This document shows positions 28,475 to 58,477 of a stretch of DNA of 64,000 nt, piece after piece. The stretch is from Minisyncoccota bacterium (GTDB taxonomy: Bacteria; Patescibacteriota; Minisyncoccia; Phycocordibacterales; JAQTLZ01), in assembly GCA_028714635.1 (NCBI GenBank), contig JAQTLZ010000001.1, positions 15,650 through 79,649 of the forward strand, written 5' to 3'. The notes below the pieces were generated by a model. That model saw only the letters and a list, made by a program, of their open reading frames with translations. It did not search any database and had not been told where the DNA came from. How positions within the stretch are numbered: the first letter of the stretch is position 1; the number at the start of each line of letters is the position of its first letter. Both the position numbers and the translations under genes were made by a program.

Positions 28475-29512
28475 ATGGCGAAAATTCGAGTTGCGATTAA
28501 TGGGTTTGGCAGAATTGGACGGGCGTTTCTCAAAGTCTCTCTTGAACACAAGGAATTGGAGGTGGTGGCGGTGAATGACCTCACTTCGATCGAAAATATC
28601 GCGTATCTTTTAAAATATGACACTGCATATGGCACTTCGCCGTTTGAAGTGAAAATCAAAGACCCAACGACACTTCTTGTGGCGGGGAAAGAAATCGCCT
28701 ACATTTCCGAAAAAGATGCGACCAAATTACCCTGGAAGGCTCACGACATCGATGTAGTAGTAGAATCCACTGGACTTTTCACAGAATTTGCAAAAGCGAA
28801 AGTGCACCTCGACGCTGGTGCAAAAAAAGTGGTTATTACTGCTCCCGCAAAAGATGAGCCTCTCGCTGACACTCCATCCGGCACGTTCCTTCTTGGAATC
28901 AATAGCGACAAAATTAAATCCTGTTCAATTACCTCGAACGCTTCTTGCACCACAAACGCAGCAAGCCCGCTTATCGCAATCCTTCACGAAACAATTGGAA
29001 TTGAAAAGGCAATTTTGAATACGGTGCATGGATATACTGCGAGCCAGTCTCTCGTTGACGGCCCAAGTAAGAAAGATTTCCGAGAGGGAAGAGCAGCAGC
29101 AATGAACATCGTGCCTTCTTCCACAGGTGCAGCAATTGCTGTGACGAAAGCATTACCAGAGCTCGCTGGGAAATTTGATGGCATATCAGTGCGAGTGCCC
29201 GTCGTTACCGGCTCTATAGTGGACGTAACATTTATTGCAAAACGAAATACGACGAAAGAAGAAATAAACGACATCTTGAAAAAAGCCGCAACTGATAAAC
29301 GATGGTCAAAGACCTTCTCTGTAACAGAAGAACAGCTTGTATCAAGGGACATCGTCGGAAGCCCATTTGCTTCCATTGCCGACCTTAATTTCACCCGAGT
29401 TGTAGACGGAAATTTAGTAAAAGTAATGGCATGGTACGACAACGAAATGGGGTATACGCATACCCTGGTGGAGCATGTGGTACTTGCTGGGAAAGCAGAG
29501 ATTGACCAATGA
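28475..29512 (+). CDS. gap: Glyceraldehyde-3-phosphate dehydrogenase, type I
   Basis: MAKIRVAINGFGRIGR...SCTTN...AWYDNEMGYT; start at the internal Met, not the ORF-track start; the last ~20 codons look element-supplied. Confidence 0.9.
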   Translation: MAKIRVAINGFGRIGRAFLKVSLEHKELEVVAVNDLTSIENIAYLLKYDTAYGTSPFEVKIKDPTTLLVAGKEIAYISEKDATKLPWKAHDIDVVVESTGLFTEFAKAKVHLDAGAKKVVITAPAKDEPLADTPSGTFLLGINSDKIKSCSITSNASCTTNAASPLIAILHETIGIEKAILNTVHGYTASQSLVDGPSKKDFREGRAAAMNIVPSSTGAAIAVTKALPELAGKFDGISVRVPVVTGSIVDVTFIAKRNTTKEEINDILKKAATDKRWSKTFSVTEEQLVSRDIVGSPFASIADLNFTRVVDGNLVKVMAWYDNEMGYTHTLVEHVVLAGKAEIDQ

Positions 29513-29572
29513 ATTAGTAGCTTCGCTTGTCGGTCGAATTATCAGAATCGCTTTTCGCTATTCGTTCAACAG

Positions 29573-30148
29573 TTGTTTCCTCAACCGCGTTACCAGATTA
29601 TTTACGCCGATCCGCCCTGGCGCTACTCGAAGTTCCGTCATTGGCGCGTCATGGGCAAAGGCATCGCTGCCTATTACGAAACACTGACGACCTCGGAAAT
29701 CGCGGCACTGCCAGTTTCCAAAATTGCGGCCGGCGACTGCATCCTGTTTCTGTGGACGACGTTTCCGCGCTTGCCCGATGCTCTGGCCGTGATCGCGGCC
29801 TGGGGCTTCACGTACAAAACGGTGGGATTCACCTGGCTCAAACTCAATGCTCGGAACGGCAAACCGTTCTTCGGCATGGGCCACTACACCCGGAGCAATT
29901 GCGAAGTCTGCCTCATCGGCGTCAAAGGCAGGTCGCTGCGCGTGAGCAACCGCGTCTCGTCGGTGGTCTTTGCTCCCCGGCAGGAGCACAGTCGCAAGCC
30001 GGATGAAGTTCGGGAGCGGATTGTCACGCTCTGCGGCAACCGGCCCCGCATTGAACTGTTCGCCCGTGAACGGGTGTCCGGCTGGGATGCCTGGGGAGAC
30101 GAAGTGAAAAGCGACATTGAACTTGCGCCGCCATCGGAAGCGTCCTGA
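29573..30148 (+). CDS. MT-A70-family N6-adenine DNA methyltransferase (orphan)
   Basis: IIYADPPW motif; TTG start; first gene inside the element's left end. Confidence 0.75.
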   Translation: MFPQPRYQIIYADPPWRYSKFRHWRVMGKGIAAYYETLTTSEIAALPVSKIAAGDCILFLWTTFPRLPDALAVIAAWGFTYKTVGFTWLKLNARNGKPFFGMGHYTRSNCEVCLIGVKGRSLRVSNRVSSVVFAPRQEHSRKPDEVRERIVTLCGNRPRIELFARERVSGWDAWGDEVKSDIELAPPSEAS

Positions 30149-30211
30149 TCGTTATGTCTCTTTTCTCCAACCCTAAATTTTGGTTCCTTACTCATAACGA
30201 GGGGAACGCAT

Positions 30212-30808
30212 TTGTCGCTTTGTCGAAAGCGGAAGGGTTGGGGAAAAGGGAAGCTGGCGCTTCCATGGCCGTGCTTCATTACCATGTATTATTTCATCGT
30301 CTCGAAGGGCCTCCTCGATGCCAAGCACCGCAGAAGGATGGGCGTTGCAGTTTGGGAATTTCTTTGGTGCTTGGACCGCGTGACTAAAATCAATGCAGAT
30401 GGCCTGGGCCTTGTCCTCGGCGGCAAGCCGGTCAACCTCTGCGATTTCACCGGCAGCCTGGGGACTTCAGAGGTCACAGTCAGCCGCAACCTGCAAAAAC
30501 TGGCCCGCTGGAATTATCTCACGCTCGTCCATGCGCCCTACGGCATCGTCATCCAGGTGCCAAAAGCCAAGAAGAGGTTTGTCAAAAATGCTAATCCACA
30601 CGGAATCCACAGGTTTAGCGGAAATGATCGGCCTGGATTTATCAAATCTGCTCAACCTCCCTTCAGAAATGATAAACCTGACTTCAGAAGTGATAAACCT
30701 AATAAGAGAAGTAAGGATGAGAATGAAGATGAGAAAGGGCTTATCGCCATGAATGCACTCATCGAGGAAAGAAAACTGGAGATTTCACGCCTCGTAAAAT
30801 CACTATGA
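30212..30808 (+). CDS. Winged-helix DNA-binding protein (putative replication initiator or regulator) with a Lys/Asp-rich tandem-repeat tail
   Basis: GVAVWEFLWCLDRV...GTSEVTVSRNLQKLARWNYL wHTH-like region; TTG start with a GAGGGG SD, alternative ATG at 30284; C-terminal FRNDKPDFRSDKPNKR tail encoded by tandem 21-bp repeats. Confidence 0.45.
   Translation: MSLCRKRKGWGKGKLALPWPCFITMYYFIVSKGLLDAKHRRRMGVAVWEFLWCLDRVTKINADGLGLVLGGKPVNLCDFTGSLGTSEVTVSRNLQKLARWNYLTLVHAPYGIVIQVPKAKKRFVKNANPHGIHRFSGNDRPGFIKSAQPPFRNDKPDFRSDKPNKRSKDENEDEKGLIAMNALIEERKLEISRLVKSL
30654..30738. repeat. Repeat R1a: two tandem 21-bp units (TTCAGAARTGATAAACCT...) at the 3' end of the wHTH gene; copy of R1b
   Basis: ~90% identical by eye to 58052-58135. 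Confidence 0.7.
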
Positions 30809-31023
30809 CTGAAATTGAACAAATCCAAAATATTATGCTCGCCAAAGCCGTGTACGCCCTGAGCGAGATTCAGCGCACCGTTGGCCGGTTCAAAAACCAG
30901 AAACGCGCGCTCAACCGAATTGAAGCCGTAGCCAGCCGGTCCCTCCACGAGATTGACGTGCTCAAGGAGACGGTTGGCATGAAAATCAGGAACAGGGAAG
31001 GTCTCGGCACGATCAAATTCTGA
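30805..31023 (+). CDS. Hypothetical small protein (72 aa)
   Basis: 4-bp overlap with the upstream gene; its 3' end is duplicated downstream of the giant protease gene. Confidence 0.4.
   Translation: MTEIEQIQNIMLAKAVYALSEIQRTVGRFKNQKRALNRIEAVASRSLHEIDVLKETVGMKIRNREGLGTIKF
30931..31023. repeat. Repeat R2a (~93 bp), 3' end of the small ORF; copy of R2b
   Basis: ~88% identical by eye to 35651-35743. Confidence 0.7.
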
Positions 31024-31198
31024 CCTGTGGTTTTCTGGTTGTCGCTCAAGAGTCACACGAAGCATGTGCCTCACAACTTATTTGAAACCCCCATCCTCGC
31101 GTTCGCGAGAGCGGGGTTTCTTGTCCACATTGTCCCCCTTCCTTCACCGGTAGTGGATGCTGTATACTACATACTGATATTATTTCAATTCGAGAGGC

Positions 31199-34100
31199 AT
31201 GAAAACAATCCACGAGAAACTTCAGAACGGAAGCCAAGCCTACGCCGACTGGCACAACAAGCCGGCGCATCCGTATGTTCATGGAGCGATCTATGTAGCC
31301 GTCCTCTTTTTTGCTATTCAAGCGGTAGCTATCGACACGAATTCTCTTATTGACAGTTATTTTAGCTCAACATCTTTTGTTACAATTGCCGTCCGCTCGC
31401 TTGCCACTAATGTCAAAGCCCTGACAGACAAAGCGGTCTTCCTGGCTGAAGCGTTGCGTTCGTATCCGGAAAATCAAAGACCGGCGCTTTCCGCCGAACT
31501 TGAACAGACTCTCGCGAATCGCTTTGCCGCGCTCTCACGTCTTGCCGACAGCAACTCGCAGAGTTTCCTTTCCTCGATCTTTACGGCGGAACAGAGAGCG
31601 CTCATGCCCGCATCGGTTGCTTCCGCAATAGAGACGCCTGTCAATCCGAATGATACCTATACCTATCTGGTGAAGCATTCTGATGAAGGTCTTTGTGAAT
31701 CTCCGGCGCACTCCGACAATCCCAAAGCTCCTCCGCCTGCCGAAAAGCACTGCGATGCCCGCGGCATTTTCCAAGACCGCTTGAAAGGCAAAGACGGCAA
31801 CATTTTTGAAGCTCATTTTGGGGGCAAGAAACCGCGCCTCGGCGAACAAATCAAAATCAAGAAAGGCCAGAGAGTGGGCCAGCAGATTGTTGTATCGGCA
31901 GATGCCGATGCTACTGAAGTGGTTGCTCCGATAAAGGCGCAGTTGGGCGCAGGTGGCGCAGGCGCAGGCGGGTCAACCTCAAGCATGCCGACGACGGGTG
32001 TTAAAACCGTGCTCTACATGCTCGTCGGTTTTCCCGATGTCGTTGATACCACAGGATCAATTACGGGTACGGTAGGTGGAATACTTGCTCCGGGATTGCC
32101 GGGATCGTCTGGATCGTCACAGGTTAGCGAAGCTCAGGCTATGACTGACGCTCAATCAGAAATGGGAAAGGTGAATCAATTCCTGTCGGATAATTCCCAC
32201 GGTTTGACTTCATTTTCAACGGTCGTCACTCCGCTTCTTGTTTTGCCCAACACCTCAACTTATTATGCGAGCCATACATCCTTCCCATACGGTGATGACC
32301 TGATCCAGGCCGATGCCCGCGCTGCCGCCCTCGCCAAAGGGTATAACTATCTGGATTACACTCTTGATGCCGTCCGTTACAACGGCAGTTACGGCAATTT
32401 CGGCGGCGAAGCATACATTGGCAGCCGAGGCGTGTGGCTCAAGTCATCCCGCTTTACCGTGGCGGCTCATGAATTCGGCCACAACTATGGTCTTTTCCAC
32501 GCCAACACATGGGTTACTACTGATGGGACGACGCTTGGAGCTGGCGCGAATCAAGAGTATGGTGACTTATTCGACAGCATGAGCAGCAGTTCGTTGGGAG
32601 GATATTTCAACGCATTTGAAAAATATTGGTTGCAATGGCTTCCTCCTGCAAACACTACGTCAGTCACCACAAGTGGCACGTATGCTGTCAGTTCCTTCGA
32701 CCAGCCCGCTTTCAGTGCTGGACTCAAATATGCTCTCAAAATTACCAAAGATACCGATCGCGATTATTGGATCGGTTTTCGGCAGGGTTTCCCGGCAAAT
32801 ATCTGGGAGACGAATGGCGCTGAAGTGCTTTGGGATCCTTGGACAAATAGCAACGGCGGCAGCCAGCTTTTGGACACGAACCCTGGCGGTACGAATGGCT
32901 GGAATGACGCCGCACTTGTTGTTGGTCGCACTCTTGCGGATACCAGCGCAGGAATATATATAACACCGATACGTAAAAATCCGGCAAATGGGACAGTCCC
33001 CTCATCAATAGATGTGGTGGTAAATCTCGGCGCATTTTCCGGAAATGTCGCCCCAACCCTTTCTGTGGCGCCAAGCGCGACTTCCATTCCGATGTATCAG
33101 CCTGTTACTTTTACCCTGAACGCAAATGACGGGAACGGGGATGCTTTGGCATACTACTGCGATTTCGGAGACAAAACATTCAGCAACATGAGCGCTGGTG
33201 TTCTTTCTAAGGTATACGTTGCGCCCGGCACATTCACGGTTATGTGTGAAGTTTCCGACATGAAAGGCGGAAAAGCGACAGCGGCAACGAGTCTTACGGT
33301 AACGGCTGCTGCCCCTCTCAACAATATGTTCGCCAATGCTTTTGTTCTCACAGGCTCAGCAGCGAATGCGACCGGCGCGAATAATTACGCTACGAAGGAA
33401 TCCGGCGAACCGACTATCGCCAGCACGATCGGCGGCAAGTCGGTCTGGTGGACGTGGACCGCGCCCGCTTCAGGAGCGACCACCATCGCTCTCGCGGGAA
33501 GCAATTTTGATACGCTCCTCGGCGTCTATACCGGTACGGCAGTCAACGCTCTCACCCTCGTCGCTTCAAATGATGATAATGGAACTTCGCCTCGAAGCAG
33601 GGTTGTCTTTAATGCTACGGCGGGAACGACATACCACATTGCAGTAGATGGATATGGCGGGTCATGGGGAAACATTGCTCTTTCTGTGTCCGGGCCTTCC
33701 GCCACTGTCAATACAGCGCCGACTGTCGCCACTTCCGCCAGCGTTTCCCCAAGTCCTGTGACGGGAACCACCGCTACACTTTCTGCTCTTGGCACTGATG
33801 ATGGGGGAGAATCCGCACTCACCTATACTTGGGCTGTTACGGGCACACCTCCTGGTCCTGTCGTCTTTAGTACAAATGCAACCAATGCCGCAAAGATAAC
33901 CACTGCTACTTTCGACAAAGCCGGTACTTACAACCTCCAAGTTACTGTCAAAGATGCTGGTAATCTATCAGTCACAAGTTCTGTTACGGCAACAGTCAAT
34001 CAAACACTCTCCACTCTTTCTGTCACACCAGCTACGGCAACGGTTTTGACTTCCGGAACGCAACAATTTAGCGCGGTTGCAAAAGACCAGTTTGGAAATC

Positions 34101-35632
34101 TGCTCACCGTGGCGCCCGCCCTCACCTGGGCGGTTTCGGGCGGCGGATCGATCAATTCCGCCGGCCTCTTCACTGCTGGTTCCACCGCGGGCGGGTCGTT
34201 CACGGTCACGGCCACCAGTGGCGCGGTGTCGGGCACAGCCACAGTTACGGTAGGCGCCGTGCCAATTCTCACGACAATTTCCGTGTTCCCAAGCTCCACG
34301 CTGGTCGCGACTAACGGAACCAAGCAGTTTACCGCAACGGCCAAGGATCAGTTTGGTGTTGCGCTTTCACTTCAGCCAACATTCACTTGGAGCGTTACTG
34401 GCGGAGGTACTATTTCTTCCACCGGCCTTTTCACTGCGGGGTCCACTTCAGGCGGGCCTTACACTGTGGCGGCGTCAAGTGGTGGTGTCAGTGGCACGAC
34501 TACTCTCTCGGTCATCGTCATTCCGGTGCTAACGACAATTACCGTTTCTCCTTCCAATCCAACTGTTCAGCCGGGAGGAACCCAACAATTCACCGCGACT
34601 GGAAAAGATCAGAATGGCAGCACTCTCACGTCCCAACCGACATTCACCTGGAGCGTCTCGGGTGGTGGCACGATGAGCGCAAGTGGTCTCTTTACCGCAA
34701 GCGCCACCGCGAAGGGTTCGTACACGGTTACTGCGACAAGCGGCAGCGTTTCTGGAACTGCTTCCGTCAGTGTTCCTGCCGTCCTAAAATCCATCACTCT
34801 TTCTCCTTCCAGCGCTTCAGTGCAGACAAACGGAACACAGCAATTTACAGCCCAAGGTGTTGATCAGACCGGCGCATCCATGACCTTCGCCCCGGTTTGG
34901 ACGGTAAATGGGGGAGGCACGCTCTCTTCGAGCGGCCTCTTCACTGCCGGAGGCACAGCGGGTGGTCCATACACGGTGACCGTCACCAACAATCCTGTTA
35001 CCGCAACCGCCAGCGCTTCTGTCACAATCACCGCGCCAGCTCCTGTTCTCACATCGATCACTCTTTCTCCGATCTCCGCTTCGCTTGTTTCCGGAGCGAC
35101 ACAAACATTTACCGCTACCGCAAAAGATCAAAATGGAACTGCGATGTCTCCACAACCAAGTTTCACTTGGACAGCAACTGGCCAATCATCACTTGCACCG
35201 AGCGGTTCTACAGCGACCTACACAGCGGGCAACACGGCAGGCGCTTCCTTTGGAATAACAGCTTCTTCGGGAGGGAAAAGCGCCACCGCTCCTATTAGTA
35301 TCACGGTGCCTGTGACACCGTCTCCCCCGCCACCAACAGGGGGAGATGTCACTCCGCCTACGGTCAGCTTGAAACCTCCGCCTTCTAATGGTGACATCAT
35401 ACAGAGAAGTACAAGGACTCTTTGGGCCAACGCCTCTGACAATGCAAAAATTGCCAAAGTGGAATTCTACGCCAACACCACTTTGCTTTGCACTGTCAAA
35501 CGCTCCGCCAATTTTTACTGCAATTGGGATCCGACCGGTAGCAGCGTCACCTACAATCTCACGGCAAAAGCCTACGACACGTCGAATAATTCCGCCGTCT
35601 CTCCTGTGGTCACAGTGACGACAGTTCCCTAA
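31199..35632 (+). CDS. Giant secreted/membrane-anchored zinc metalloprotease (HExxH) with PKD, pre-peptidase C-terminal (PPC) and ~12 Big_2 Ig-like repeats
   Basis: N-terminal TM helix; AAHEFGHNYGLFH zincin motif; PKD-like YYCDFGDKTF; PPC-like domain (TTYHIAVDGYGGSWGNIALSVSG); repeated ~85-aa Big_2 units (GLFTAGSTAGGSFTVTATSG...TATVTV). Confidence 0.7.
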   Translation: MKTIHEKLQNGSQAYADWHNKPAHPYVHGAIYVAVLFFAIQAVAIDTNSLIDSYFSSTSFVTIAVRSLATNVKALTDKAVFLAEALRSYPENQRPALSAELEQTLANRFAALSRLADSNSQSFLSSIFTAEQRALMPASVASAIETPVNPNDTYTYLVKHSDEGLCESPAHSDNPKAPPPAEKHCDARGIFQDRLKGKDGNIFEAHFGGKKPRLGEQIKIKKGQRVGQQIVVSADADATEVVAPIKAQLGAGGAGAGGSTSSMPTTGVKTVLYMLVGFPDVVDTTGSITGTVGGILAPGLPGSSGSSQVSEAQAMTDAQSEMGKVNQFLSDNSHGLTSFSTVVTPLLVLPNTSTYYASHTSFPYGDDLIQADARAAALAKGYNYLDYTLDAVRYNGSYGNFGGEAYIGSRGVWLKSSRFTVAAHEFGHNYGLFHANTWVTTDGTTLGAGANQEYGDLFDSMSSSSLGGYFNAFEKYWLQWLPPANTTSVTTSGTYAVSSFDQPAFSAGLKYALKITKDTDRDYWIGFRQGFPANIWETNGAEVLWDPWTNSNGGSQLLDTNPGGTNGWNDAALVVGRTLADTSAGIYITPIRKNPANGTVPSSIDVVVNLGAFSGNVAPTLSVAPSATSIPMYQPVTFTLNANDGNGDALAYYCDFGDKTFSNMSAGVLSKVYVAPGTFTVMCEVSDMKGGKATAATSLTVTAAAPLNNMFANAFVLTGSAANATGANNYATKESGEPTIASTIGGKSVWWTWTAPASGATTIALAGSNFDTLLGVYTGTAVNALTLVASNDDNGTSPRSRVVFNATAGTTYHIAVDGYGGSWGNIALSVSGPSATVNTAPTVATSASVSPSPVTGTTATLSALGTDDGGESALTYTWAVTGTPPGPVVFSTNATNAAKITTATFDKAGTYNLQVTVKDAGNLSVTSSVTATVNQTLSTLSVTPATATVLTSGTQQFSAVAKDQFGNLLTVAPALTWAVSGGGSINSAGLFTAGSTAGGSFTVTATSGAVSGTATVTVGAVPILTTISVFPSSTLVATNGTKQFTATAKDQFGVALSLQPTFTWSVTGGGTISSTGLFTAGSTSGGPYTVAASSGGVSGTTTLSVIVIPVLTTITVSPSNPTVQPGGTQQFTATGKDQNGSTLTSQPTFTWSVSGGGTMSASGLFTASATAKGSYTVTATSGSVSGTASVSVPAVLKSITLSPSSASVQTNGTQQFTAQGVDQTGASMTFAPVWTVNGGGTLSSSGLFTAGGTAGGPYTVTVTNNPVTATASASVTITAPAPVLTSITLSPISASLVSGATQTFTATAKDQNGTAMSPQPSFTWTATGQSSLAPSGSTATYTAGNTAGASFGITASSGGKSATAPISITVPVTPSPPPPTGGDVTPPTVSLKPPPSNGDIIQRSTRTLWANASDNAKIAKVEFYANTTLLCTVKRSANFYCNWDPTGSSVTYNLTAKAYDTSNNSAVSPVVTVTTVP

Positions 35633-35650
35633 CAAGAAGCGCGCCCAAAA

Positions 35651-35743
35651 GCCAGCCAGTCGCTCCACGAGATTGGTGTTCTCAAGGAGACGGTGGGCAT
35701 GAAAATCAGGAACGGGGAAGGACTTGGCACGATCAAATTCTAA
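35651..35743. repeat. Repeat R2b (~93 bp) directly after the protease stop codon
   Basis: Continues in frame after the TAA and encodes ...SLHEIGVLKETVGMKIRNGEGLGTIKF*, homologous to the C-terminus of ORF 30805-31023. Confidence 0.7.
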
Positions 35744-35908
35744 CGCTGGTTTTGCGGCCACCCGGCTGCCTCGAAAAGTGGCTGCCAGTGCCGGCGTGCC
35801 CGGCAGAAAAGTCAGAGAAAGTTTTCATTGCGGGGCTGGTGAACTTGCATATACTCGCCATCACCTAAGCAAGTCGGGGCAGACAACAAGGTGAAAGGAG
35901 GAGGGGTC

Positions 35909-36418
35909 ATGCCGGAAGAAGTTCTCGGCGGGATGTGGGAAAGCATCAAGACAGAGTGGGAATCGGCCCGGCCACAGGTGACGGGGCATTGCACGCTCAT
36001 TGAAGATTTCCAAGCTTCGCCCACTCACTTTTACGGCCTCGTCGAAAAGGCAATTGAGCGCCGCAAGATTCCGGGTCTGCGCATGTCGCATGTCCTGCAT
36101 CGGGAAGGCTGGATCATGTCCGCGGCGCGCGAGTACCTGCGCGCCGAGCGCGGCAAGATTTCGTTTGAAATCTGCGGCGCGCCCTTCGGGACCGGGTTTT
36201 TCGTGTCGTGCCGCATGATCGTCATGCCGGAAAAGAATGGCATCTTCGCCCGGATTTGGAAGTTCCTGTTCAATCCCAACACCTTCTACCAAATGGACGT
36301 TGCCGCCATGTACCAATCGGCAATCGAATCAGCGGTGAAGGAAGCGAAGAACGAATTGACGCAGACGAAACTCTCCGTGCCGGGCCTGCGCACCAGCGCT
36401 GTTCCGGTGCTTGCGTGA
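35909..36418 (+). CDS. Hypothetical protein (170 aa), first gene of a three-gene operon
   Basis: Strong GGAGGAGGGG SD; no recognised family; ends 5 nt before the ATPase start. Confidence 0.4.
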   Translation: MPEEVLGGMWESIKTEWESARPQVTGHCTLIEDFQASPTHFYGLVEKAIERRKIPGLRMSHVLHREGWIMSAAREYLRAERGKISFEICGAPFGTGFFVSCRMIVMPEKNGIFARIWKFLFNPNTFYQMDVAAMYQSAIESAVKEAKNELTQTKLSVPGLRTSAVPVLA

Positions 36419-36423
36419 CGGCC

Positions 36424-39400
36424 ATGAGCGCAAACGAATACGCCCTGGCCCGGCCTCAAGCGCACGGCAGCACCGCCGATTTGGTCGCGAGCGAATTCTC
36501 CCGCTGGCTTGCCTTGGGGCAAGGCACGCGGGAATGGGATTTCCCTGTCTTTATCGAGCCGCCCTACAGTCCGATCATCGTCGCTCCCGCTGTTATCGAG
36601 GACGACGGCAGGCAGCCGACGATTCTCAGCGCTCTGGCGGATACCGTCGGCAACTGGCTGAGTCCGAAAAAGAGACCCGCGCCTAAAGCGAACACGGTCG
36701 TTGCCGGCGATCTCAATTGGCTGGCATTTCCCAATTGCAGCACGCCCGTTGAATTTCAAGCGCTCATTCCTCCGCACATCAGCATCCGCAAGGACAGCTT
36801 CGAGCAATTCTTAATGAGCGTCAGGTACTGCCACTTTCCGCTCTGTTTCGAATTGATCGGCCGCGCGGATTCGATCACGGTTCAACTGGTCGCGCAGCAA
36901 GATGACGTGGCGCACGTCGAACCGCAACTCGCGGCGCACTTTCCGGACATTGTCTTCGCTAAACGCACGGGGCATCTGGAAAAAGTCTGGCAGGAGACGG
37001 AAGGCGAGCATCGCTTTCTTTTTGGGTTCAGCCTGTTGCAGCCGTTTCTCCTGCCGCTCGAATCCTATCGGGGTTTTCCCGTCGATCCGCTCGTTGGCCT
37101 GGCTGGCGCACTTTCCGACATCCGCAAGGACGAGGCCGCCGTCTTCCAAGTGCTCTTTGAACCGGCGCGCAATCCGTGGCTTGAGACGCTGGCTCAAGTC
37201 GCCGAGTTCGCGCCGGAACTCAGCCCGCATATTCGCAAGAAGATTGCGTATCCGTTTTTTGCGGTGGTGGCGCGGCTGGCTTGCAAGGCCGCGAGTGAAG
37301 AGCGCTTGGTGCAATTGCTCAAGAATCTCGACGGCGCGATGCGCGTATTTTCAACCCCTGCTGGAAACGGATTGACCGTGCTTTCCAACAAGGGCTATTC
37401 GAGTGGCCGGCAGGAAATTGATCTGTTACTGCGACAAACGCACCGCAGCGGCATGTTGCTGAACAGCGACGAACTGCTGGGCCTTGCGCATTGGCCGACA
37501 CCCGCGGTGCGCACGCCGAAGCTGGACCGCGCCACGCGCAAGACAAGGCCGGCGCCCACGCTCTGCCTGAATCATGCGTTGACGCTCGGCACGAACAACC
37601 ACAACGGAGAAGACAGCACCGTGACGCTCGCGCCCGCGCAGCGCGTCAAGCACATGCACGTCGTCGGCGCGTCGGGCACCGGCAAGTCAACGTTTCTACT
37701 CAACCTCATCATCCAGGACATTGAAAACGGCGAGGGCGTCGGCGTGCTCGATCCGCATGGCGACCTTGTGGATGAAATTCTCGCCCACATTCCCGCAGAA
37801 CGCCACGACGATGTGGTCCTCGTCGATCCGTCCGATGAAGAATACCCGGTCGGTTTCAATATCCTTTCGGCGCACTCGAATCTCGAAAAGAACCTGCTGG
37901 CTTCGGACCTCGTTTCCGTTTTTCGCCGCCTGTCCACAAGCTGGGGCGATCAAATGACCTCAGTGCTCGGAAACGCCGTGCTCTCGTTTTTGGAAAGCAG
38001 CACTGGCGGCACGCTCTCCGATTTACGGCGGTTTCTGATTGAACCGGGCTTCCGCGCGGAATTTCTTGAAACGGTGCGTGACGAGGAAGTCGTGTATTTC
38101 TGGAAGAAGGAATTTCCGCTCCTCTCCGGCAAGCCGCAAGCATCGCTGTTGACCCGGCTCGATTCCTTCCTGCGCCCCAAGCCGATTCGCCACATGGTTT
38201 GCCAGAAGGAGAACAAGCTCGACTTCGCGAGCATCATGGATTCCAAGAAAATCTTTTTGGCGAAACTCTCGCAAGGATTGATCGGGCAGGAAAACTCATA
38301 CCTGCTTGGCTCGCTGTTCGTCTCGAAATTCCATCAACTTGTCATGGGCCGTCAGGAAGTGCGCCAGTCCGAACGTGAAAACTTCTGGCTCTACCTCGAC
38401 GAATTTCAGAATTTCGTCACCCCGTCGATGGCGGCGATTCTCTCCGGCGCGCGTAAATACCGCCTCGGCCTTATTCTCTCGCACCAGGACATGCACCAAC
38501 TGGTGAGCCGCGATCCCGATGTGGCAAATGCCGTCCTTGCCAACGCCTTTACGCGCGTCTGTTTCCGGCTCGGCGACTCCGACGCGCGGCGCATGACCGA
38601 AGGCTTCTCGAATTTCGATGCTCACGATTTGCAGAGCTTGGGCACCGGCGATGCAATCTGCCGCATTGAGCGTTCCGCCTTCGATTTCAACATGTATACC
38701 GCATTGCCGGAACTCGTTGACGAAGAACTCGCCGAAGAACGGCGGCGGCGCATTCGGGAATTTTCGCGCGCCAAGCACAGCAAGAGGCGGACGGAGCTTG
38801 AGCCGCCGCGAGGCCAGACTCCGGCAGCGCCAGCATTCCCCAAAGCCGAAGATACCACTCCCACGCCAGCGGCGCCGAGGCCCGAACCCGCGCCGCTCCA
38901 AATCGCCAAGTCCACTCCAGGCAAAGGCGGCCACGAGCACAAAGTTTTTCAGCAAGTGCTTTGCGATTGGGCTGGCGATCTCGGCTTTACGGCTGCAATC
39001 GAACAGGAACTTCCGAGCGGACAGGGCAGTGTCGATGTCGAAATCGAAACCGGCTCCGAATCCATCGCCTGCGAAATTTCCGTCACAACCAGTATTGCCG
39101 ATGAACTGAGCAATCTCACGAAATGCCTGACGGCCGGCTACGATCACCTGCTGATGATCTGCACCGATCGCGGCAAACTCGACGCCTTGAAACGCAGTGC
39201 CGCTGCCAAGTTTCCTGCTGACGCGCTTGAGCGGGTCCAGTTTGTGACGCCAACCGAAGCGTTCCAATTCCTGCATAGCTTGATCGACGGCGTCTCAATC
39301 ACGGCGAAAGGCGCGCTGTCAAGTTACGGATGCGACGTGCGCGTAAATTACCCGCCCGCCGCGAGCGCACCTTCCAGCAAGAAAGGCGGCGTGGCGCAAG

Positions 39401-39444
39401 CCGTCAGGAATGCCACCAAGCGTCTTCGCGACGGAAGAAAATAG
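36424..39444 (+). CDS. Large P-loop NTPase of the TraD/VirD4/HerA-FtsK (AAA_10/TraG-D_C-like) class, with a ~430-aa non-membrane N-terminal region and a C-terminal nuclease-like domain
   Basis: Walker A HVVGASGTGKST, VLDPHGD, Walker B LYLDEFQNF, and a LILSHQDMHQL motif; no TM helices. The C-terminal ~150 aa (VDVEIETGSESIACEIS) are acidic and possibly PD-(D/E)xK-like. Confidence 0.55.
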   Translation: MSANEYALARPQAHGSTADLVASEFSRWLALGQGTREWDFPVFIEPPYSPIIVAPAVIEDDGRQPTILSALADTVGNWLSPKKRPAPKANTVVAGDLNWLAFPNCSTPVEFQALIPPHISIRKDSFEQFLMSVRYCHFPLCFELIGRADSITVQLVAQQDDVAHVEPQLAAHFPDIVFAKRTGHLEKVWQETEGEHRFLFGFSLLQPFLLPLESYRGFPVDPLVGLAGALSDIRKDEAAVFQVLFEPARNPWLETLAQVAEFAPELSPHIRKKIAYPFFAVVARLACKAASEERLVQLLKNLDGAMRVFSTPAGNGLTVLSNKGYSSGRQEIDLLLRQTHRSGMLLNSDELLGLAHWPTPAVRTPKLDRATRKTRPAPTLCLNHALTLGTNNHNGEDSTVTLAPAQRVKHMHVVGASGTGKSTFLLNLIIQDIENGEGVGVLDPHGDLVDEILAHIPAERHDDVVLVDPSDEEYPVGFNILSAHSNLEKNLLASDLVSVFRRLSTSWGDQMTSVLGNAVLSFLESSTGGTLSDLRRFLIEPGFRAEFLETVRDEEVVYFWKKEFPLLSGKPQASLLTRLDSFLRPKPIRHMVCQKENKLDFASIMDSKKIFLAKLSQGLIGQENSYLLGSLFVSKFHQLVMGRQEVRQSERENFWLYLDEFQNFVTPSMAAILSGARKYRLGLILSHQDMHQLVSRDPDVANAVLANAFTRVCFRLGDSDARRMTEGFSNFDAHDLQSLGTGDAICRIERSAFDFNMYTALPELVDEELAEERRRRIREFSRAKHSKRRTELEPPRGQTPAAPAFPKAEDTTPTPAAPRPEPAPLQIAKSTPGKGGHEHKVFQQVLCDWAGDLGFTAAIEQELPSGQGSVDVEIETGSESIACEISVTTSIADELSNLTKCLTAGYDHLLMICTDRGKLDALKRSAAAKFPADALERVQFVTPTEAFQFLHSLIDGVSITAKGALSSYGCDVRVNYPPAASAPSSKKGGVAQAVRNATKRLRDGRK

Positions 39445-39455
39445 GTGGTTGCCGC

Positions 39456-40622
39456 ATGTCTCAAACCAACGAGGTCAAACTTTCCAGGCATGTGCCATTC
39501 GGCTATCGGCGCGAACCGGCAGGCGAACTCGTGCCGGACCCCGTCGAGGCTCCCATTCGAAAGGAGCTTTACGAGCTTTTTCTCCGTCATGGCCGCAAAA
39601 AGACAGTCGCCAAATTACTGAACGAAGCTGGCCACCGCACGCGCGACGGGTCGCTTTTTTCAGACGCAACAATCGGCAGGTTGCTCCGCGATCCCATCGT
39701 GACCGGCGCTGCAACCTCGACGTTCAAGATCGAGCCGCTTATTTCGGAAGAAGTTTGGCGGCAGTGCCAGGAATTGCTGCAACATCCCGTTCCGAAAACA
39801 CCGGCACATCTCTTCGCCGGAATCGTCCAGTGCGCGTGTGGCACGAAAATGTACGTGCCAACGAACTCCGACAAATATGTTTGCGCGAACTGCCGGCGAA
39901 AGGTTCCAGCACGTCGTCTTGAAAACATCTTCTTCGACCAGTTCAAAACCTGCTTCCTGGTGCCGCTCGAAACCGGAAGCGAAGGCGGTGAACTGGTCCA
40001 GAATGTTCAAATCTGGCCGCACTTCACGCCTGAAGAGAAACGGCAGGTCGTCGAATCAATGACACAATCGATCGTTGTCGCTGATCGGAGGATCGACATT
40101 AACCTGTATTATTTGCCTTCGGTAAAAGACATGACAAATTGGCAACACGAACAAATTGGCAACAAGTCCGGCGAACGCCAGTCTACGCGCGTCCATGAAA
40201 GTCCGCTGCGGTTCAACGTAGATACCCGTGAACTCCGGCACGGCGAAACGTCATTGACGTACAAGCTCAATGAAACCACCCGCAACTTTCTCACGGTTTT
40301 GGCGCTCAATATCACAAACGGGATACACCTCCCGCTCGAACTCGACCGGCCCTTCGCGGACGGAGCCAGTTGCACAACGCGCAATGCCCTCGATACCCTG
40401 CGTAAACAGATCGGGGCGGTGATCTGCAAGCGCCTCATCAAAACCGAGCGCGGTTCAGCCACAAGGCCCGGCGGCGTCAGGCTTCAGAATGTAGAAATTG
40501 CTGGCGTTGGGAAGCGGGAAATCACTCTCAATCCCGAAGCTGTCCACGCCGCCAAATCCAACCGAACCGGCCAGTCCGCAAGGCAGCGCAAGCCACTTTC
40601 CGGTGAGCATTTTGAGCGTTGA
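39456..40622 (+). CDS. Serine-recombinase paralogue with the recombinase domain and zinc ribbon only (no resolvase catalytic domain)
   Basis: HVPFGYRREP...LVPDPVEAPIRKELYELFL (Recombinase domain) and CACGTKMY...YVCANC zinc beta-ribbon; no N-terminal catalytic Ser domain; AGGTGG SD. Confidence 0.55.
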   Translation: MSQTNEVKLSRHVPFGYRREPAGELVPDPVEAPIRKELYELFLRHGRKKTVAKLLNEAGHRTRDGSLFSDATIGRLLRDPIVTGAATSTFKIEPLISEEVWRQCQELLQHPVPKTPAHLFAGIVQCACGTKMYVPTNSDKYVCANCRRKVPARRLENIFFDQFKTCFLVPLETGSEGGELVQNVQIWPHFTPEEKRQVVESMTQSIVVADRRIDINLYYLPSVKDMTNWQHEQIGNKSGERQSTRVHESPLRFNVDTRELRHGETSLTYKLNETTRNFLTVLALNITNGIHLPLELDRPFADGASCTTRNALDTLRKQIGAVICKRLIKTERGSATRPGGVRLQNVEIAGVGKREITLNPEAVHAAKSNRTGQSARQRKPLSGEHFER

Positions 40623-40706
40623 CCTAGCCGAAGACCGGCGCATCACCGGCGTAAGTCCGGCGTAACACCGATTTTTATATTTTTTAACTCCCTTTCAAAT
40701 CAGGAC

Positions 40707-41120
40707 TTGCGCTTGGCGCCGGACTTCCAGCGAGTGTTTTCCATCAATAGGTATGGGGCGAACATGATTGCTTCGTTGCTCATGCCGCTTTGGAACGCCT
40801 CTGAGGGTCAATCCTCCATGCCGCACTCGCAGTCTCAGCAAATTCCAGCCACAGAAATACAAGAAATCGGCACAGAATCTTTCACAGATTTTACTGGACA
40901 GGATGACGCGGCTCGAGGTAATGTCCCTGTGTCCGCAGGACCGACAAGGCCGCTCGCGTTGAACAGGATTACGGACGAATTGCTCGACGATACGCTGCGG
41001 GTCTGGTCGGGAGCCTACGGCCAAACAATGACCGAAGACGATGGCGTGGAAATCCTGCTCAACGTCAAGCGTCTGGCCGAAGTGCTTATGAAGTCAGGAC
41101 AAAAAGGAGATATGCGATGA
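40707..41120 (+). CDS. Hypothetical protein, 4-bp overlap with the serine recombinase gene
   Basis: TTG start; no recognised family; alternative start at MIASLL. Confidence 0.3.
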   Translation: MRLAPDFQRVFSINRYGANMIASLLMPLWNASEGQSSMPHSQSQQIPATEIQEIGTESFTDFTGQDDAARGNVPVSAGPTRPLALNRITDELLDDTLRVWSGAYGQTMTEDDGVEILLNVKRLAEVLMKSGQKGDMR

Positions 41121-42712
41121 ACGTGATTGTCTGGGCGCGGGTCTCGTCCCGCGAGCAGCGCGAAGGATACTCCCTTGACGCGCAGCTTCGCGCCGCGCGT
41201 GAACGTGCGACAAAGAACGGCTGGACGGTTCTCAAGGAGTTCGTGGTCGCGGAATCGGCCCGGCGTGGTGCCGAGCGGGTGGCTTTCAACGAGATGTTTC
41301 AATGGGTGAAAGCCAACGCCAAACGTGATGGCATCAAAGCAATTCTGAGCCACAAACTGGATCGTGTCTGCCGCAATATGCGCGACGCGGTGCGCTTGCA
41401 AGAACTTGAAGACACCTGCGGCGTGCATCTGGCCTTCGTCGAAAACCAGTTTGGGCCGGGAGCCGCGGGCGCGCTGTCGTTTAACGTCATGGCCGCCGTG
41501 GCTCAGTATTACTCCGACAACCTGCGCAACGAAGTCTTGAAGGGCATGGATGAAAAAGTCCGGCAGGGCTGGCCCACGGGACTTGCGCCGTTCGGATACC
41601 AGAACGTGGAGAACCGCAACGAGCCGGTGGTTCCGCATCCCGTCGAATCCATAGCAGTGGCGCGCATTTTCGAGTTGTACTCGTCTGGCAACTGGACATT
41701 CAAAAGTCTCGGTGACCAGCTTGAGCGGGAGGGCATCATCTACCGTCCAAGCCAGCCGCGCTTTACGTCCTCGGCGCTCTCAAAGATTCTCAACAACCGA
41801 TTCTACATGGGCCAGATTATCCGCCGCGGCCAGGCTTTCCCCGGCAAGTACCGCGCGCTGATTGACCGCAGCGTCTTTGAAGCCTGTCAGCAGTTGCTCC
41901 ACGGCAAGAACCGGCGCACGGGCAATCCCGAAATCATGCTCTCCGGCGGCATCCTGCGCTGCGCGCATTGCGGCCACGCCATCACCGGAGAGTTCATCCG
42001 GCGCAAGCTGAGATGCGGCGGCGTCAATGTCCACACGTACTACAAATGCGGCAATAACAACCAGGCGCCGGAACATCCCAAAGTCCGCTGGCGCGAAGAG
42101 GCTGTTGAAGAAGCGCTCTTGCACGAGTTCCTTGCTCTGAAGCTGCCCACGCCGGAATCGGCGGAGTGGTTCCGAACAGCCTTGCGGGCCGGATTTGCGA
42201 ACGTGGATGAAAACCAGCGCCGCCAAAAGCAAATGTTGGGCAAGCGCACAACTGAATTGGTGAACATGCAGGACCGGTTGTTGAATGGCTATCTGGCTGG
42301 AGCCATTGACGAGGCAGTTTTCAACCGCAAATCCACCGAGTTGAAAGCGCAAGCCGTGGAGACTCAAAGCGCTCTGGAAAAGGCGGATGCGTACGATCCC
42401 GAAGCGGCGGAGCGCGCCCTGTCAGTGTTCGACTTCAGCCAGAATTTGGCCGAGCGCTGGCGCGGTTCGAACTATTCAGTCCGGCGTGAAATCCTGCTCT
42501 GCGTGAGTTCGAACCGGCTCCTTGGCACTACAACTCTTGAACTGCAAAAGAGAAAGCCCTTCGACGCGCTCGCCGAAGATCTCGTTTTGAAGATTGGTCG
42601 GGGCGACTGTACAGACTTCGAACCAACTTCTTTCATTGATTCATTCCTTCGTCCACCCGAACCGCACATTCTAACCGCTGCGCGATTGGAACGGGAGAAC
42701 ACTTTCTGTTAA
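41117..42712 (+). CDS. Large serine recombinase (integrase)
   Basis: N-terminal resolvase domain MNVIVWARVSSREQ...; recombinase domain (GLAPFGYQ); zinc ribbon (CAHCGHAI...YYKCGN); coiled-coil C-terminus. Confidence 0.85.
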   Translation: MNVIVWARVSSREQREGYSLDAQLRAARERATKNGWTVLKEFVVAESARRGAERVAFNEMFQWVKANAKRDGIKAILSHKLDRVCRNMRDAVRLQELEDTCGVHLAFVENQFGPGAAGALSFNVMAAVAQYYSDNLRNEVLKGMDEKVRQGWPTGLAPFGYQNVENRNEPVVPHPVESIAVARIFELYSSGNWTFKSLGDQLEREGIIYRPSQPRFTSSALSKILNNRFYMGQIIRRGQAFPGKYRALIDRSVFEACQQLLHGKNRRTGNPEIMLSGGILRCAHCGHAITGEFIRRKLRCGGVNVHTYYKCGNNNQAPEHPKVRWREEAVEEALLHEFLALKLPTPESAEWFRTALRAGFANVDENQRRQKQMLGKRTTELVNMQDRLLNGYLAGAIDEAVFNRKSTELKAQAVETQSALEKADAYDPEAAERALSVFDFSQNLAERWRGSNYSVRREILLCVSSNRLLGTTTLELQKRKPFDALAEDLVLKIGRGDCTDFEPTSFIDSFLRPPEPHILTAARLERENTFC

Positions 42713-43118: not shown

Positions 43119-46100
43119 TTGAAATCAATGACGAGAAAGGGCCTGAGTCAGTTTTCCATTGGGATGTCAGCTCTTTTGCTGTTGGCAATTTTCCTTGCTG
43201 CCGGGTCCGTTCTCGCCGTCCCGCCGGATTCACCGTACGCGCCGGGAGAGACACTTGATCCCGCGTGTGCTCCTGGGGAACCGAATTGCACGGTGAGCAC
43301 AATTTCCCCCTGGGGAAGCATTACGGGCACGCTTTCCAACCAAACTGATTTGCAGTCCGCGCTGGACGCGAAGGCATCGACCACCGCGAATATTTCCGGC
43401 TTCACCAACGACATCGGTTATCAAACCGCCGCAAATGTTTCCACGTACGTCACGGGGCTTCCCATTTCAACATTCACAAACGATGCCGGCTTCATCACCA
43501 ATTCTTCTTTGAGCGGGTATGTTCCGTACACGGGCGCCACGGGGAATGTCAATTTGGGCGCAAACAATCTCACAACGTCTGGCACGCTCTCCGCCGCTAA
43601 TCTTTCCGGCGTCAACACCGGAGACCTCACCTTGAGTGACGTAACGGGTCTTTCTCTTTCCGGACAAGTGCTTTCCGTTACCTCTGGCTATGCCATTCCG
43701 CTTACCGCTTCGACCACGAACTGGAACAGCTTCTTAGACACGCCGTCCACCCGTATCAGCGCGGGTACTGGCCTTTCATGGAGCGGGAATACGCTCAATG
43801 CTACAGGCGGTGCCGGCTCCGTCACCTCCGTTGACGCCTCCGGCGGCGCGACCGGCCTTTCCTTCAGCGGCGGCCCGATCACTACATCCGGCACGTTGAC
43901 GCTTTCAGGCATTCTTGGTGTGGGAAGCGGAGGCACGGGAACTTCCACCGCTCCGTCATTCGGTCAGGTTCTCCTCGGCAACAATTCGGGAGGGTATGAT
44001 TTGGTGGCCACTTCTTCCCTCGGATTTAGCGGTGGTCCCATTTTCGCTGACAGCCCTCTCACCGGAGACGGCACATCAGGAAATCACTTAACGATCCCCG
44101 GTCTTTTCATCAATGTTCCGAATAATGTCTATGGAATCGGGGATTCTGCGAATACGTTGGTTGGAAATACCGGAACTGATGTCAATGCACTCGGACCATT
44201 GGCCGCCCAAAGCAACATCGGCAACGATGTCAACGCTTTCGGAGGAAATGCCGCATACCAAAACATCGGGGCGAATGTAAACGCTTTGGGAAACAACGCC
44301 GGGAACGGCAATACTTCCGGCGACGTCAACGCCTTTGGTTCTTCTGCAGGTCAAGGCAACTCTGGCACCTCTCTCAATGCTTTGGGAAGCGGAGCAGGTC
44401 AAGGAAACTCCGGAGGAAACGTCAATGCTTTCGGTTCTGCTGCGGCAAACGGAAACACAGCAAACAATTTGAACGCTTTTGGAAGTGGGGCAGGCCTTTC
44501 CAACACAGGGACAGATGTAAACGCTTTCGGACAGTCTGCTGGATTCTCAAACACCGGTACCAATTCTAACTTCATGGGAAATCTGGCGGGCATAGGTAAT
44601 TCTGGAAACAATGTCAATGCTTTCGGAAATGGAGCTCTTAACAGCAACACCGGCAATGACATCGTTGCCATAGGCAACGGAGCGGGAAGTTTCAACACCT
44701 ACAACAACCTGGCTTTGTTTGGAATTGGCGCCACCGCATCTTCGAGCAATCAGGCACAGTTGGGAACAGACTCAAACCCTCTCGATACCTATATCCACGG
44801 CAACCTCTCTTTCACTGGAGGCTTGTATGACAGTGCTTCTTCACTGGGAACTTCCGGCTATGTCCTTTCCTCTACCGGTTCGCAGGTGCAGTGGGTGGCG
44901 ACCTCAACTCTCGGACTTGGAGGCTCGAGCGGGACGGTGAGTTCTGTAGATGCTTCCGGCGGTACAACAGGACTCACTTTCTCTGGTGGTCCTATTACCA
45001 CTTCAGGCACACTGACGCTTGGCGGGGTTCTGGGAACGGCAAATGGCGGGACGGGAACATCAACCACAGCGAACAACAGCATTTTTGTTACCAATGGTTC
45101 CGGCACACCATCATGGCGCACGACGCTCCCTGCCTTCACCCTCGGCGGAACAGTCACCGGCAACTCCCAAAATCTCACCGGCCTCAATCAACTCACGGTG
45201 ACCGGCGCTACTGCCACCTCCACGTTCTCGACCGGAGGCTTCACCATCGGCGGCAATCAGTTTGTGGTGCAGCAGACTTCGGGAAACATCGGCATCGGCA
45301 CTTCGGTTCCGGGATCGAGATTTCATGTTCTGTCCTCTTTCGGAAATTCATCCAATTCTATTTTCACCACAAATGATTTTGTCAGCGGTTCTACGGGAAG
45401 TGACTTATCAATTAGTTTTGGAGCAACCAGTGGCAATACATCTTCTGTCTTAACCGCCGCAACTGCAGGGGGCAGTTTATTTGGCGCAATGGAATTCGAT
45501 GCAAGCAAGTTTGCATTCATGAACGGCAACGTCGGCGTCGGCACCACTACTCCAGCGACGAAGCTCCACATCCTCGGCACCACCGAACAGCTCCGCCTCG
45601 GCTACGACGCGTCCGACTATGCTTCCTTCACGGTCGGCTCTGACGGCGCGTTTTCTATCACTCCAACAAATAGCGCCACTACTACCGTCACCAACGCGCT
45701 CGTAGCGTCAAACCTCTCTGGCACGAACACGGGAAATGTCACTCTGACAGGAGAAAATTATCTTTCGCTTTCCGGCCAGCAGATTACGGCGAGCGCAATC
45801 AATTTGAGCGGCTCGAACGTGACCGGCACATTGGCGGTCAACAAAGGCGGCACCGGAACCACCACCTTCGGCGGCGCCAACACCCTTCTTTATACCACCG
45901 CCGCCGATGCGCTTTCCTCCATCGCCACCGGCAACAACGGCGTGCTCATCACGTCCTCTGGCGGTGTACCCTCAATTTCTTCAACCCTTCCCGCTGCCGT
46001 GCAGGGCAACATCACCTCGCTTGGCACGCTCACAAGCGGCGTGTGGAACGGTTCGGCAATCGGCCCGACCTATGGCGGCACGGGCCTCACCTCCTACGCA

Positions 46101-50900: not shown

Positions 50901-51362
50901 AGCAACTCGGGAACATTTTCTGCCGGAACGAGTATGGTCACCCTTAATGGAGCGGGCGCGCAGACAATGAGCGGGGCCAACACTTTTTACGGATTGGCGA
51001 TCACTGGCGGCGGCCGGACCGTCTCTTTTCAAAGCGGCGCGGCTCAGTCAATCGCGGCAAACGGCTCGCTGGCCCTGAGCGGCTCTGCCGGCCACCTGCT
51101 CACGCTCGCTCCGTTGACTCCCGCTTCCGAGTGGCAGCTTCACCTTGATGCCGCCGCCGCTCAAGCTGTTTCGTATGTTTCAGTTTCGTATTCAAATGCG
51201 GGCGGTTTTGCCGAGGTGAATGCCGCCAACGGGACAAACAGCGATGGCGGCAATACCACAAACTGGAATTTCGGCGCAATCATCAATCATGCGGCGCGGC
51301 TGAAGATTTGGAATGCCTCCCTGCGAATATCAGGCGGTTCCCGCTTGCGCATCACACGCTAA
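47970..51362 (+). CDS. Giant (1130 aa) secreted protein built from autotransporter-associated beta-strand (PATR) repeats
   Basis: Signal peptide MKKLLLTLSLVSFIFLFSPRLAFA; many GAGTLTLSG.NT(F/Y)TG.T.(V/I).(S/A)GTL units; two near-identical ~40-aa segments (GVASVANVSGAFG.NS.VT.ANAA). Confidence 0.65.
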   Translation: MKKLLLTLSLVSFIFLFSPRLAFAATKYWSGTGTWNAANTNWGTSPGGPYNAATFNTGDDAVFEGSAGTVTVSAPNHPNSITFNKTGYTLNSGTLTLDGPSIAVSSGAATINSSIAGSAGLAKSGGGTLTLSGNNSFTGGLTVKSGTLEGTGSVNAFGGSGTGAITLGDSSGSANATLSGGAGPFANPISVASGNTGAATIIRNGVGGNSTFSGAVTLNSHNLVLNPGGNALSMSGGFTGAGNLAFNSSFNSITIQTGSVNNTGTITQSGAGAVTVSGGVGANVTDIIQNGTASLTISTTALTVNSGGTTLTNTSSNGSLLTVSGGVNGTGNLIIKNNTGTANAVTLSTNSVNNTGAVTNSGAGSGGATISAVVGVNVTGVVQNSASSSLTLSGANTYTGPTTVSAGTLQAGVASVANVSGAFGKNSTVTMANVAGAALNITGFNTQIGSLTGGGAAGGNVTLGSATLTVGGDNTSPAAYAGVLSGAGGLTKIGAGTLTLTGINTYAGATTIAAGTLNANSTSALGSGGAANTLIFSGGALQASGAITSPGTRTLTLTSTGLIDTNGQSVSIAGVMSGAGGLTKSGAGTLTLSAANTFTGKTSITGGALSVTNNGNLGATPGSVTPDSITLNGGTLQFTGGTTGQTATLATNRGITLGSLGGTLKITYTVASGSFNALTDTPSFVYSGIIAGTSGGNLAIQGGAGTNNGSNPYLFKFNGASTYNGNTTIDNATLTYFNSGSAGDNRLPASTVLTIINNGAFNICGQASGTRTQTLAGLIGDSTAKVGGTNQVNPAVLALNPSASSFTWSGVIGVTTVVDKTGINSLQSVVKSGAGTEIFAGQNTYAGATNVNAGVLRAGVASVANVSGAFGNNSAVTLANAASAVLDLADFNTQIGSLTGGGGTGGNVTLGSATLTVGGDNTSPAAYAGVLSGAGSLAKIGTGAFSISNTVTLGGDFTISAGTVSANSSMMNVAGNWSNSGTFSAGTSMVTLNGAGAQTMSGANTFYGLAITGGGRTVSFQSGAAQSIAANGSLALSGSAGHLLTLAPLTPASEWQLHLDAAAAQAVSYVSVSYSNAGGFAEVNAANGTNSDGGNTTNWNFGAIINHAARLKIWNASLRISGGSRLRITR

Positions 51363-56279: not shown

Positions 56280-56381
56280 TGGAAATAAGGAGCTCCGCTT
56301 GTTTGTAATTACAATTTGATGTCACAGAACGTGATCTCATACGTTGTAATAATTATAAAGTGTGGTAATATAATAAATACT

Positions 56382-58408: not shown

Positions 58409-58477
58409 GCATGGCACCACAATGAAGTCGGGTATACGCACTCTCTTATTTGGCATGTGCTTGAGATGGGGAAGTAA
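58409..58477 (+). pseudogene. Displaced remnant of the gap 3' end (23 codons) at the right attachment site
   Basis: Translates to AWHHNEVGYTHSLIWHVLEMGK*, versus AWYDNEMGYTHTLVEHVVLAGK in the intact gene; shared GGGTATACGCA core. Confidence 0.6.

Follow-up and report, generated by a model that had tools for sequence, protein, structure and literature searches.

Duplicated gene ends that bracket acquired DNA have been described before. In Escherichia coli, the copies of the gene end found with e14 at icd differ largely by conservative or synonymous changes, and recombination between them removes the insert and yields a chimeric intact gene (PMC13626634). Site-specific accretion of the ICESt1/ICESt3 type gives composite islands with several direct repeats of target-gene ends and decayed internal elements (PMC5704250). 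Here, we analysed a stretch of 64,000 nucleotides (nt) of contig JAQTLZ010000001.1 (assembly GCA_028714635.1, forward-strand positions 15,650 to 79,649; hereafter the window), whose source record is a metagenome-assembled genome (MAG) of the Paceibacterota ('Pacebacteria'), in the candidate phyla radiation (CPR). It holds a mobile island in which the gene for a putative zinc metalloprotease lies between two copies, R2a and R2b, of the 3' tail of a small gene, small72, and our results make it probable that this repeat pair is the scar of a cargo insertion into the island, left by a recombination that joined two alleles of the small72 tail. To our knowledge, CPR mobile elements and the movement of large CPR surface proteins are poorly documented. 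The setting is a 29-kb high-GC element that targets the GAPDH (glyceraldehyde-3-phosphate dehydrogenase) gene of a small CPR genome and carries a giant, predicted membrane-anchored metalloprotease, and the locus offers a clean example of an integrative element acquiring a host-type gene, where the insertion leaves both neighbouring transcription units intact together with a repeat pair able to remove the gene precisely later.

A repeat search of the window showed that R2a and R2b (Table 1) form a gapless direct repeat of 95 nt with 85 identical positions (89%), and about 9e-31 pairs of this kind would be expected by chance in 64 kb. The first-pass annotation of this DNA had described a 4.4-kb protease gene bracketed by direct repeats of ~93 bp and ~88% identity, which agrees well with the 4434-nt open reading frame (ORF) and with a proper alignment, on which the homology of the copies holds. 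Its assignment of R2a to the 3' end of the ORF at 30805-31023, now small72, was equally correct, as was its statement that R2b continues in the frame of the protease; R2b does not come right after the protease TAA (35630-35632), though, since it begins 17 nt past it, behind a linker. Beyond the stop codons of the two copies weak similarity goes on for ~10-14 nt more (TGGTTTT; to about 31034-31038 and 35753-35757). A candidate extension of the repeat on its upstream side (AACCAGAAACGCGC against AACAAGAAGCGCGC, with a 16-nt gap, reaching the protease stop) was discarded, as 240 of 2000 shuffles equalled its score and the small72-family hidden Markov model (HMM) is blind to it. The translation through R2b reads ...P, stop, QEARPKASQSLHEIGVLKETVGMKIRNGEGLGTIKF, stop, with QEARPK-ASQSLHEIGVLKETVGMKIRNGEGLGTIKF and stop for R2b itself; the small72-family HMM matches R2b at model positions 43-70 only, and no in-frame start codon lies upstream of it.

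The two copies differ at nine codons, six of them synonymously and three non-synonymously (synonymous divergence, dS, 0.375; non-synonymous divergence, dN, 0.044; omega about 0.12). This synonymous excess has P = 0.006 against neutrality and P = 0.05 against a model with one copy neutral and one constrained. No insertion or deletion (indel) separates the copies over 95 nt, and both retain a stop codon, TGA in R2a and TAA in R2b. Because the differences are mainly synonymous, R2a and R2b can be regarded as diverged alleles of one gene end, and therefore the segment probably arrived by recombination with a related element carrying another small72 allele. The pattern suggests that the two tails diverged while both were coding and came to lie side by side after a fairly recent recombination. 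The same final layout would be reached by duplication of the small72 tail in situ, through slippage or unequal crossing-over, with the protease gene landing between the copies, or by a duplication formed during illegitimate insertion, R2b having decayed since. The three amino-acid changes lend this some support: one is D to G at a residue conserved in both known small72 homologues (P0111 and P0112), another, R to Q, is ambiguous and the third is uninformative, and every interpretable change is on the R2b side, at conserved residues, as for a decaying copy. However, free drift of one copy predicts about 35% synonymous changes and not the 6 of 9 seen (P = 0.05), and a copy that keeps its stop codon and gains no indel in 95 nt also speaks against decay, so that we hold an origin in situ to be unlikely.

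Related elements provide further evidence for the scar of a cargo insertion. Homologues of small72, a very small family, were found only by an exhaustive HMMER search of 1.8e9 representative proteins, which recovered P0111 (70 aa, 49% identity, ending in ..IKF) and the fragment P0112; a word-indexed search of 5.8e9 proteins returned the query itself only, a scan of the JGI metagenome contigs returned nothing, and Pfam, PHROG and NCBIfam gave no match. P0111 is located on three contigs (L027, L028 and L029) that have the backbone order of the window, namely orf174, small72, orf169, the gene for a type IV coupling-protein-like ATPase and a Recombinase-domain gene (rec388), with protein identities to the window of 51%, 49%, 46%, 53-57% and 49%, respectively. 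On these contigs the small72 homologue ends 58 nt before the orf169 homologue and the protease is absent, and no second small72 tail is present anywhere in the 13.5-kb L027 contig. In the window, 4.7 kb lie between small72 and orf169, made up of the protease gene preceded by a small72 tail and a terminator-like hairpin; the protease is the only gene called between the R2 copies, as it is in independent gene calls on contigs L003 and L032 (the mechanical ORF list has other short frames there). Since the gene order is the same in L027-L029, where the tail is single and the protease missing, the protease gene looks like inserted cargo. The hairpin at 31084-31120 has no counterpart in the 58-nt spacer of L027, and a terminator-scan match at 31100-31115 is no stronger than what shuffles yield for the region. 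The small72 tail is the least conserved part of its family, and the tail DNA is not conserved in L027.

Loci anchored on other backbone genes were uninformative. Ten of them (L001, L002, L004-L009, L030 and L031) share the orf169-ATPase pair only, with mutually unrelated upstream regions and no small72, and 14 metagenome loci share only the DnaD-like N-terminal domain of orf174, several of them beside other small genes, and do not inform on the slot. Among annotated plasmids, no relative of the ATPase exceeds 35% identity.

In composition and ancestry the protease gene also stands apart from the backbone. Its GC content at third codon positions (GC3) is 0.515, against means of 0.67 for the backbone and 0.39 for the host, and its codon usage correlates with both the host and the backbone sets, whereas backbone genes correlate with the backbone alone (correlation with the host, 0.48 for the protease and -0.08 for the ATPase). 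A single protein, P0057 (1340 aa), is homologous to the protease over its full length (45% identity across 1251 aligned positions, anchor and catalytic region included), and its gene is chromosomal: it is located at 4083-8105 of contig L010 (GCA_028711065.1), flanked by the genes for RmuC and ribosomal protein L21, in a second Paceibacterota MAG obtained from the same sequencing runs, at a locus without any of the island backbone genes and with no R2b-like tail. All other protease matches cover repeat domains only. From this we infer that the protease gene is likely derived from the CPR gene pool and did not come with the high-GC backbone. Besides the domains in Table 1, Pfam gave a sub-threshold match to Peptidase_M66 and NCBIfam a weak, sub-threshold match to an M6 domain, and residues 400-436, which include the motif HEFGHNYGL, weakly match catalytic domains of collagenase-3 (MMP-13). 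This motif and the start codon are conserved in P0057, and inspection of the sequence shows a hydrophobic anchor at the N-terminus. As a prediction, the protein can reasonably be called a membrane-anchored zinc metalloprotease with Ig-like repeats. Between 34067 and 35182 the gene contains repeated 261-nt units (about 87 codons) that correspond to Big_2-type domains and share 60-71% identity.

The proposal in the first-pass annotation that the segment is a cargo cassette that had been gained is supported by the contigs without a protease, by the gene's own codon usage and by the chromosomal location of its only full-length relative; variants with one R2 copy and no protease, which it had named as a check, do exist in L027-L029, though these are distant. 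Its two further suggestions, that the cassette is swappable by recombination between the repeats and that the site is a modular surface-protein slot, are not shown by our results, which comprise a single occupied and a single empty state, a longest uninterrupted identity of 18 nt between the copies, and sister assemblies in the occupied form only. Those assemblies come from two sequencing runs: L032 (SRR22315509) is 100% identical to window positions 29556-42051, and L033 (SRR22315508), which covers the protease/R2b/orf169 junction, to 34825-37335; no protease-deleted variant was found in either. Even though the source is a MAG, the chance that the layout comes from a chimeric contig or a collapsed repeat is negligible, given identical sequence across both junctions in two other assemblies from two runs and a 95-nt repeat that, at 89% identity, is not prone to collapse.

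With regard to mechanism, the donor would be a related element that differed in its small72 allele. On one side the exchange would have been anchored by the homologous rep-small72 region, and on the other it would have been closed by an illegitimate join beside the protease stop; the same structure could come from one crossover with a circular intermediate bearing a small72 tail. By either route small72 would be kept intact through R2a, orf169 would keep its native upstream sequence, and R2b would be the tail left at the native site upstream of orf169. Because the copies align without gaps, any crossover within R2 would remove the protease and re-create an intact (hybrid) small72 of 72 codons next to orf169. 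Because the longest identical run is 18 nt, such homologous deletion should be rare today.

Some of our observations weigh against this explanation. The synonymous excess rests on nine changes, and the test against decay in situ is marginal (P = 0.05). The empty state is shown for the family and not for a near-isogenic sister, as the sole relative with the small72 module is distant, at about 50% protein identity, and the direction, gain in the window as opposed to loss in L027, is one that we infer and did not observe. No donor element with small72 followed by the protease is known. There is no sharp step in GC content at the R2 boundaries, and a promoter scan of both intergenic regions flagged no consensus promoter, although that consensus may not be the one used in CPR.

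R2b is most likely a non-functional, dead remnant, and that it shares the frame of the protease is a coincidence with a chance of 1 in 3. It could instead serve a function: readthrough of the protease stop would give the protease a small72 C-terminus, a mini-ORF (AAGGAG, 9 nt, ATG: MKIRNGEGLGTIKF) might be translated, or the copy might act as a cis-regulatory leader of orf169. The shared frame, the synonymous bias of the changes and the retained stop codon would suit such a role, and R2b is probably transcribed, since the scan flagged no terminator in the interval from the protease to orf169. However, the frame has a prior of 1 in 3, host and island genes alike end normally in TAA, TAG or TGA with no sign of recoding, and D to G affects a conserved residue. 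Rfam RNA families gave no match around R2, the tail is the least conserved part of the small72 family, nothing comparable occurs in the L027 spacer, and the extension that readthrough would produce is absent from P0057; we regard a function for R2b as very improbable. Both R2 copies contain AAGGAG followed by ATG 9 nt later (30966-31023 and 35686-35743), which opens a 14-codon frame, MKIRN[R/G]EGLGTIKF. This mini-frame is probably a by-product of the Lys-Glu codons in small72.

The island in which this took place can be delimited by its ends. Up to 29.5 kb, and again from 58.5 kb onwards, the window is ordinary chromosome with a GC content of about 42%, encoding SecA, Obg, GatB and GAPDH, and the 29-kb block in between has mostly 53-60%. 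The 3' end of the GAPDH gene is duplicated at the two ends of the block (attL and attR in Table 1) with the common core GGGTATACGCA; the left GAPDH has a complete Gp_dh_C domain, and the right tail copy has host-like composition. L027 contains a joined, attP-like form, in which positions 2657-2716 resemble window 58309-58367 and positions 2748-2801 resemble window 29428-29481 (89%); this form has the dyad GGGTAT-ACGC-ATACCC, and the rest of the L027 element is 66-72% identical to the window, compared with the 89% of the GAPDH-like tail. Because L027 joins the homologue of the right arm directly to that of the left arm, the block is, as read from sequence alone, an integrative element of 29 kb that occupies the 3' end of the host GAPDH gene and supplies its own GAPDH tail. 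Its genes include those for an MT-A70 methyltransferase, orf174, small72, the protease, orf169, the ATPase, a Recombinase-domain protein without catalytic domain, a full large serine recombinase and two more giant proteins, and on the opposite strand those for an ArdC-like protein, a primase and a Replic_Relax protein. The large serine recombinase (41117-42712) combines Resolvase, Recombinase and Zn_ribbon_recom domains and is similar to CcrA/B and XisF.

With these ends in view, it could be argued that the segment from R2a to the protease is itself a nested, non-autonomous site-specific cassette, which targets the 3' end of small72 with a substitute tail and uses a recombinase in trans, R2a and R2b being its attL and attR. 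The layout is formally identical to that of the island ends and to that of e14 with icd/icdC (PMC13626634), a full large serine recombinase is encoded in the island, and the orf174 tail offers a further tail duplication (30589-30738 and 57986-58135). However, the segment has no recombinase gene, R2 aligns with attL and attR (the GAPDH att core) with scores no better than shuffles, and no inverted repeat of at least 6 nt, and hence no dyad symmetry, was found in R2. Elements of serine recombinases normally have very short flanking repeats (PMC5704250), and the tail DNA is not conserved in L027. We therefore consider the nested cassette improbable, and R2 was rejected as an att pair for lack of att-core similarity, of dyad symmetry and of a recombinase in the segment. 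It was likewise rejected as the target-site duplication of a transposon or insertion sequence, since it is 95 nt long and diverged, where 2-15 bp would be expected, with no flanking inverted repeats and no transposase gene found.

The recurring copy of orf174 comprises about its last 150 nt, with about 80% identity; the repeated copy has lost 1 nt and contains a premature TAG. Iteron-like repeats (TTCAGAARTGATAAACCT twice, AATCCACAG two to three times) are present in both copies, and the duplicated segment may represent either a further origin-like site, and so be functional, or what is left of a gene. The three tail pairs are nested, GAPDH outermost, orf174 in the middle and small72 innermost, and in each the full gene is the left member and the remnant the right one; repeated recombination between related elements would be consistent with this nesting. 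The idea that the orf174 remnant and R2b are the two sides of one break in a second element was rejected, as the HMM found no match to the small72 N-terminus at 58180-58248. One may go further and imagine a habit of this element family, in which incoming DNA enters the 3' ends of resident genes with a substitute tail and the protease unit is a recombinase-less, "tail-substituting" cassette, movable and precisely losable, that shuttles giant surface proteases between CPR bacteria; we give this little credence.

Table 1. Positions in the window of the genes, repeats and ends discussed in the text.
Feature	Position	Strand	Description	Basis
orf174	30284..30808	+	rep-like, DnaD-like winged-helix N-terminus; backbone gene directly upstream of small72	phrog_7498, E = 7e-24; 51% identity to the L027 homologue
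small72	30805..31023	+	72 codons; start overlaps the orf174 stop (ATGA); very small family	ORF list
R2a	30930..31024	+	functional 3' tail of small72 (codons 43-72 and TGA)	
Hairpin	31084..31120	+	terminator-like hairpin, then UUUCUUGU; between small72 and the protease gene	minimum free energy fold
Protease gene (cargo)	31199..35632	+	4434 nt, 1477 aa; putative zinc metalloprotease with N-terminal membrane anchor, PKD, PPC, repeated Big_2 and Big_7	Pfam
Linker	35633..35649	+	17 nt from the protease TAA to R2b; right-hand junction of the insert	
R2b	35650..35744	+	tail-only remnant of a small72 allele, without start, ending in TAA; at the native site of the small72 tail, 164 nt before orf169	
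orf169	35909..36418	+	conserved partner of the coupling-protein-like ATPase; directly downstream of small72 in relatives	
Type IV coupling-protein-like ATPase	36424..39444	+	backbone gene	TrwB_AAD_bind, TraG-D_C
attL	29429..29495	+	GAPDH 3' end, to which the element contributes the right part as a substitute tail; core GGGTATACGCA	
attR	58409..58474	+	displaced original GAPDH tail (AWHHNEVGYTHSLIWHVLEMGK, stop); the next host gene begins 5 nt past its stop	

Other parts of the island are described here for completeness. The MT-A70 gene (29573-30148) lies between attL and orf174, where L027 has no gene, its att-like site lying 130 nt from the orf174 homologue; it looks like a second element-specific insertion, without flanking repeats. 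After the ATPase, window 39456-40622 encodes a Recombinase domain without Resolvase, as does L027 at 7488-8600 (370 aa), and the L009 protein is full (598 aa); the Recombinase-domain-only form seems to be conserved and not a one-off truncation. On the minus strand, a 180-aa ORF (55737-56279) is 41% identical to residues 655-748 of the ATPase and represents part of a second coupling-protein gene or else a small independent paralogue. The stretch at 56300-57985, which separates the relaxase block from the orf174 remnant, is AT-rich with host-like composition and contains small ORFs without family matches. The giant gene at 43119-47912 (1597 aa, GC3 0.58) has no Pfam match and that at 47970-51362 (1130 aa, GC3 0.71) has five PATR autotransporter-associated repeats; both may be more surface-protein cargo.

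Comparison with known systems places the locus among familiar forms of gene acquisition. Like R2, e14 (and phage 21) in E. coli icd/icdC shows a full gene on the left with a 3' end supplied by the insert and a tail-only copy on the right. The GAPDH ends of the island match this arrangement closely, and R2 matches it in layout; unlike the R2 segment, which is one cargo gene with no recombinase and no att-like repeat features, e14 has its own integrase and a defined att core. Accretion of the ICESt1/ICESt3 type also differs, as it repeats one att sequence in tandem and the island in the window nests three different gene tails. The protease resembles phage morons and the cargo modules of integrative and conjugative or integrative and mobilizable elements in being a single extra gene of its own composition, with a terminator-like hairpin upstream, between backbone genes that are adjacent in a relative. 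The classical definition of morons comes from lambdoid phages, and duplications of about 100 nt of a neighbouring gene do not usually flank them. Homology-facilitated illegitimate recombination (compare PMC3240628) would yield an intact small72(a), the cargo and a truncated small72(b), and at this locus it would be known from its end product only. The R2 pair is probably an ordinary cargo-acquisition scar that is unusually easy to read, and the mechanism behind it is not new.

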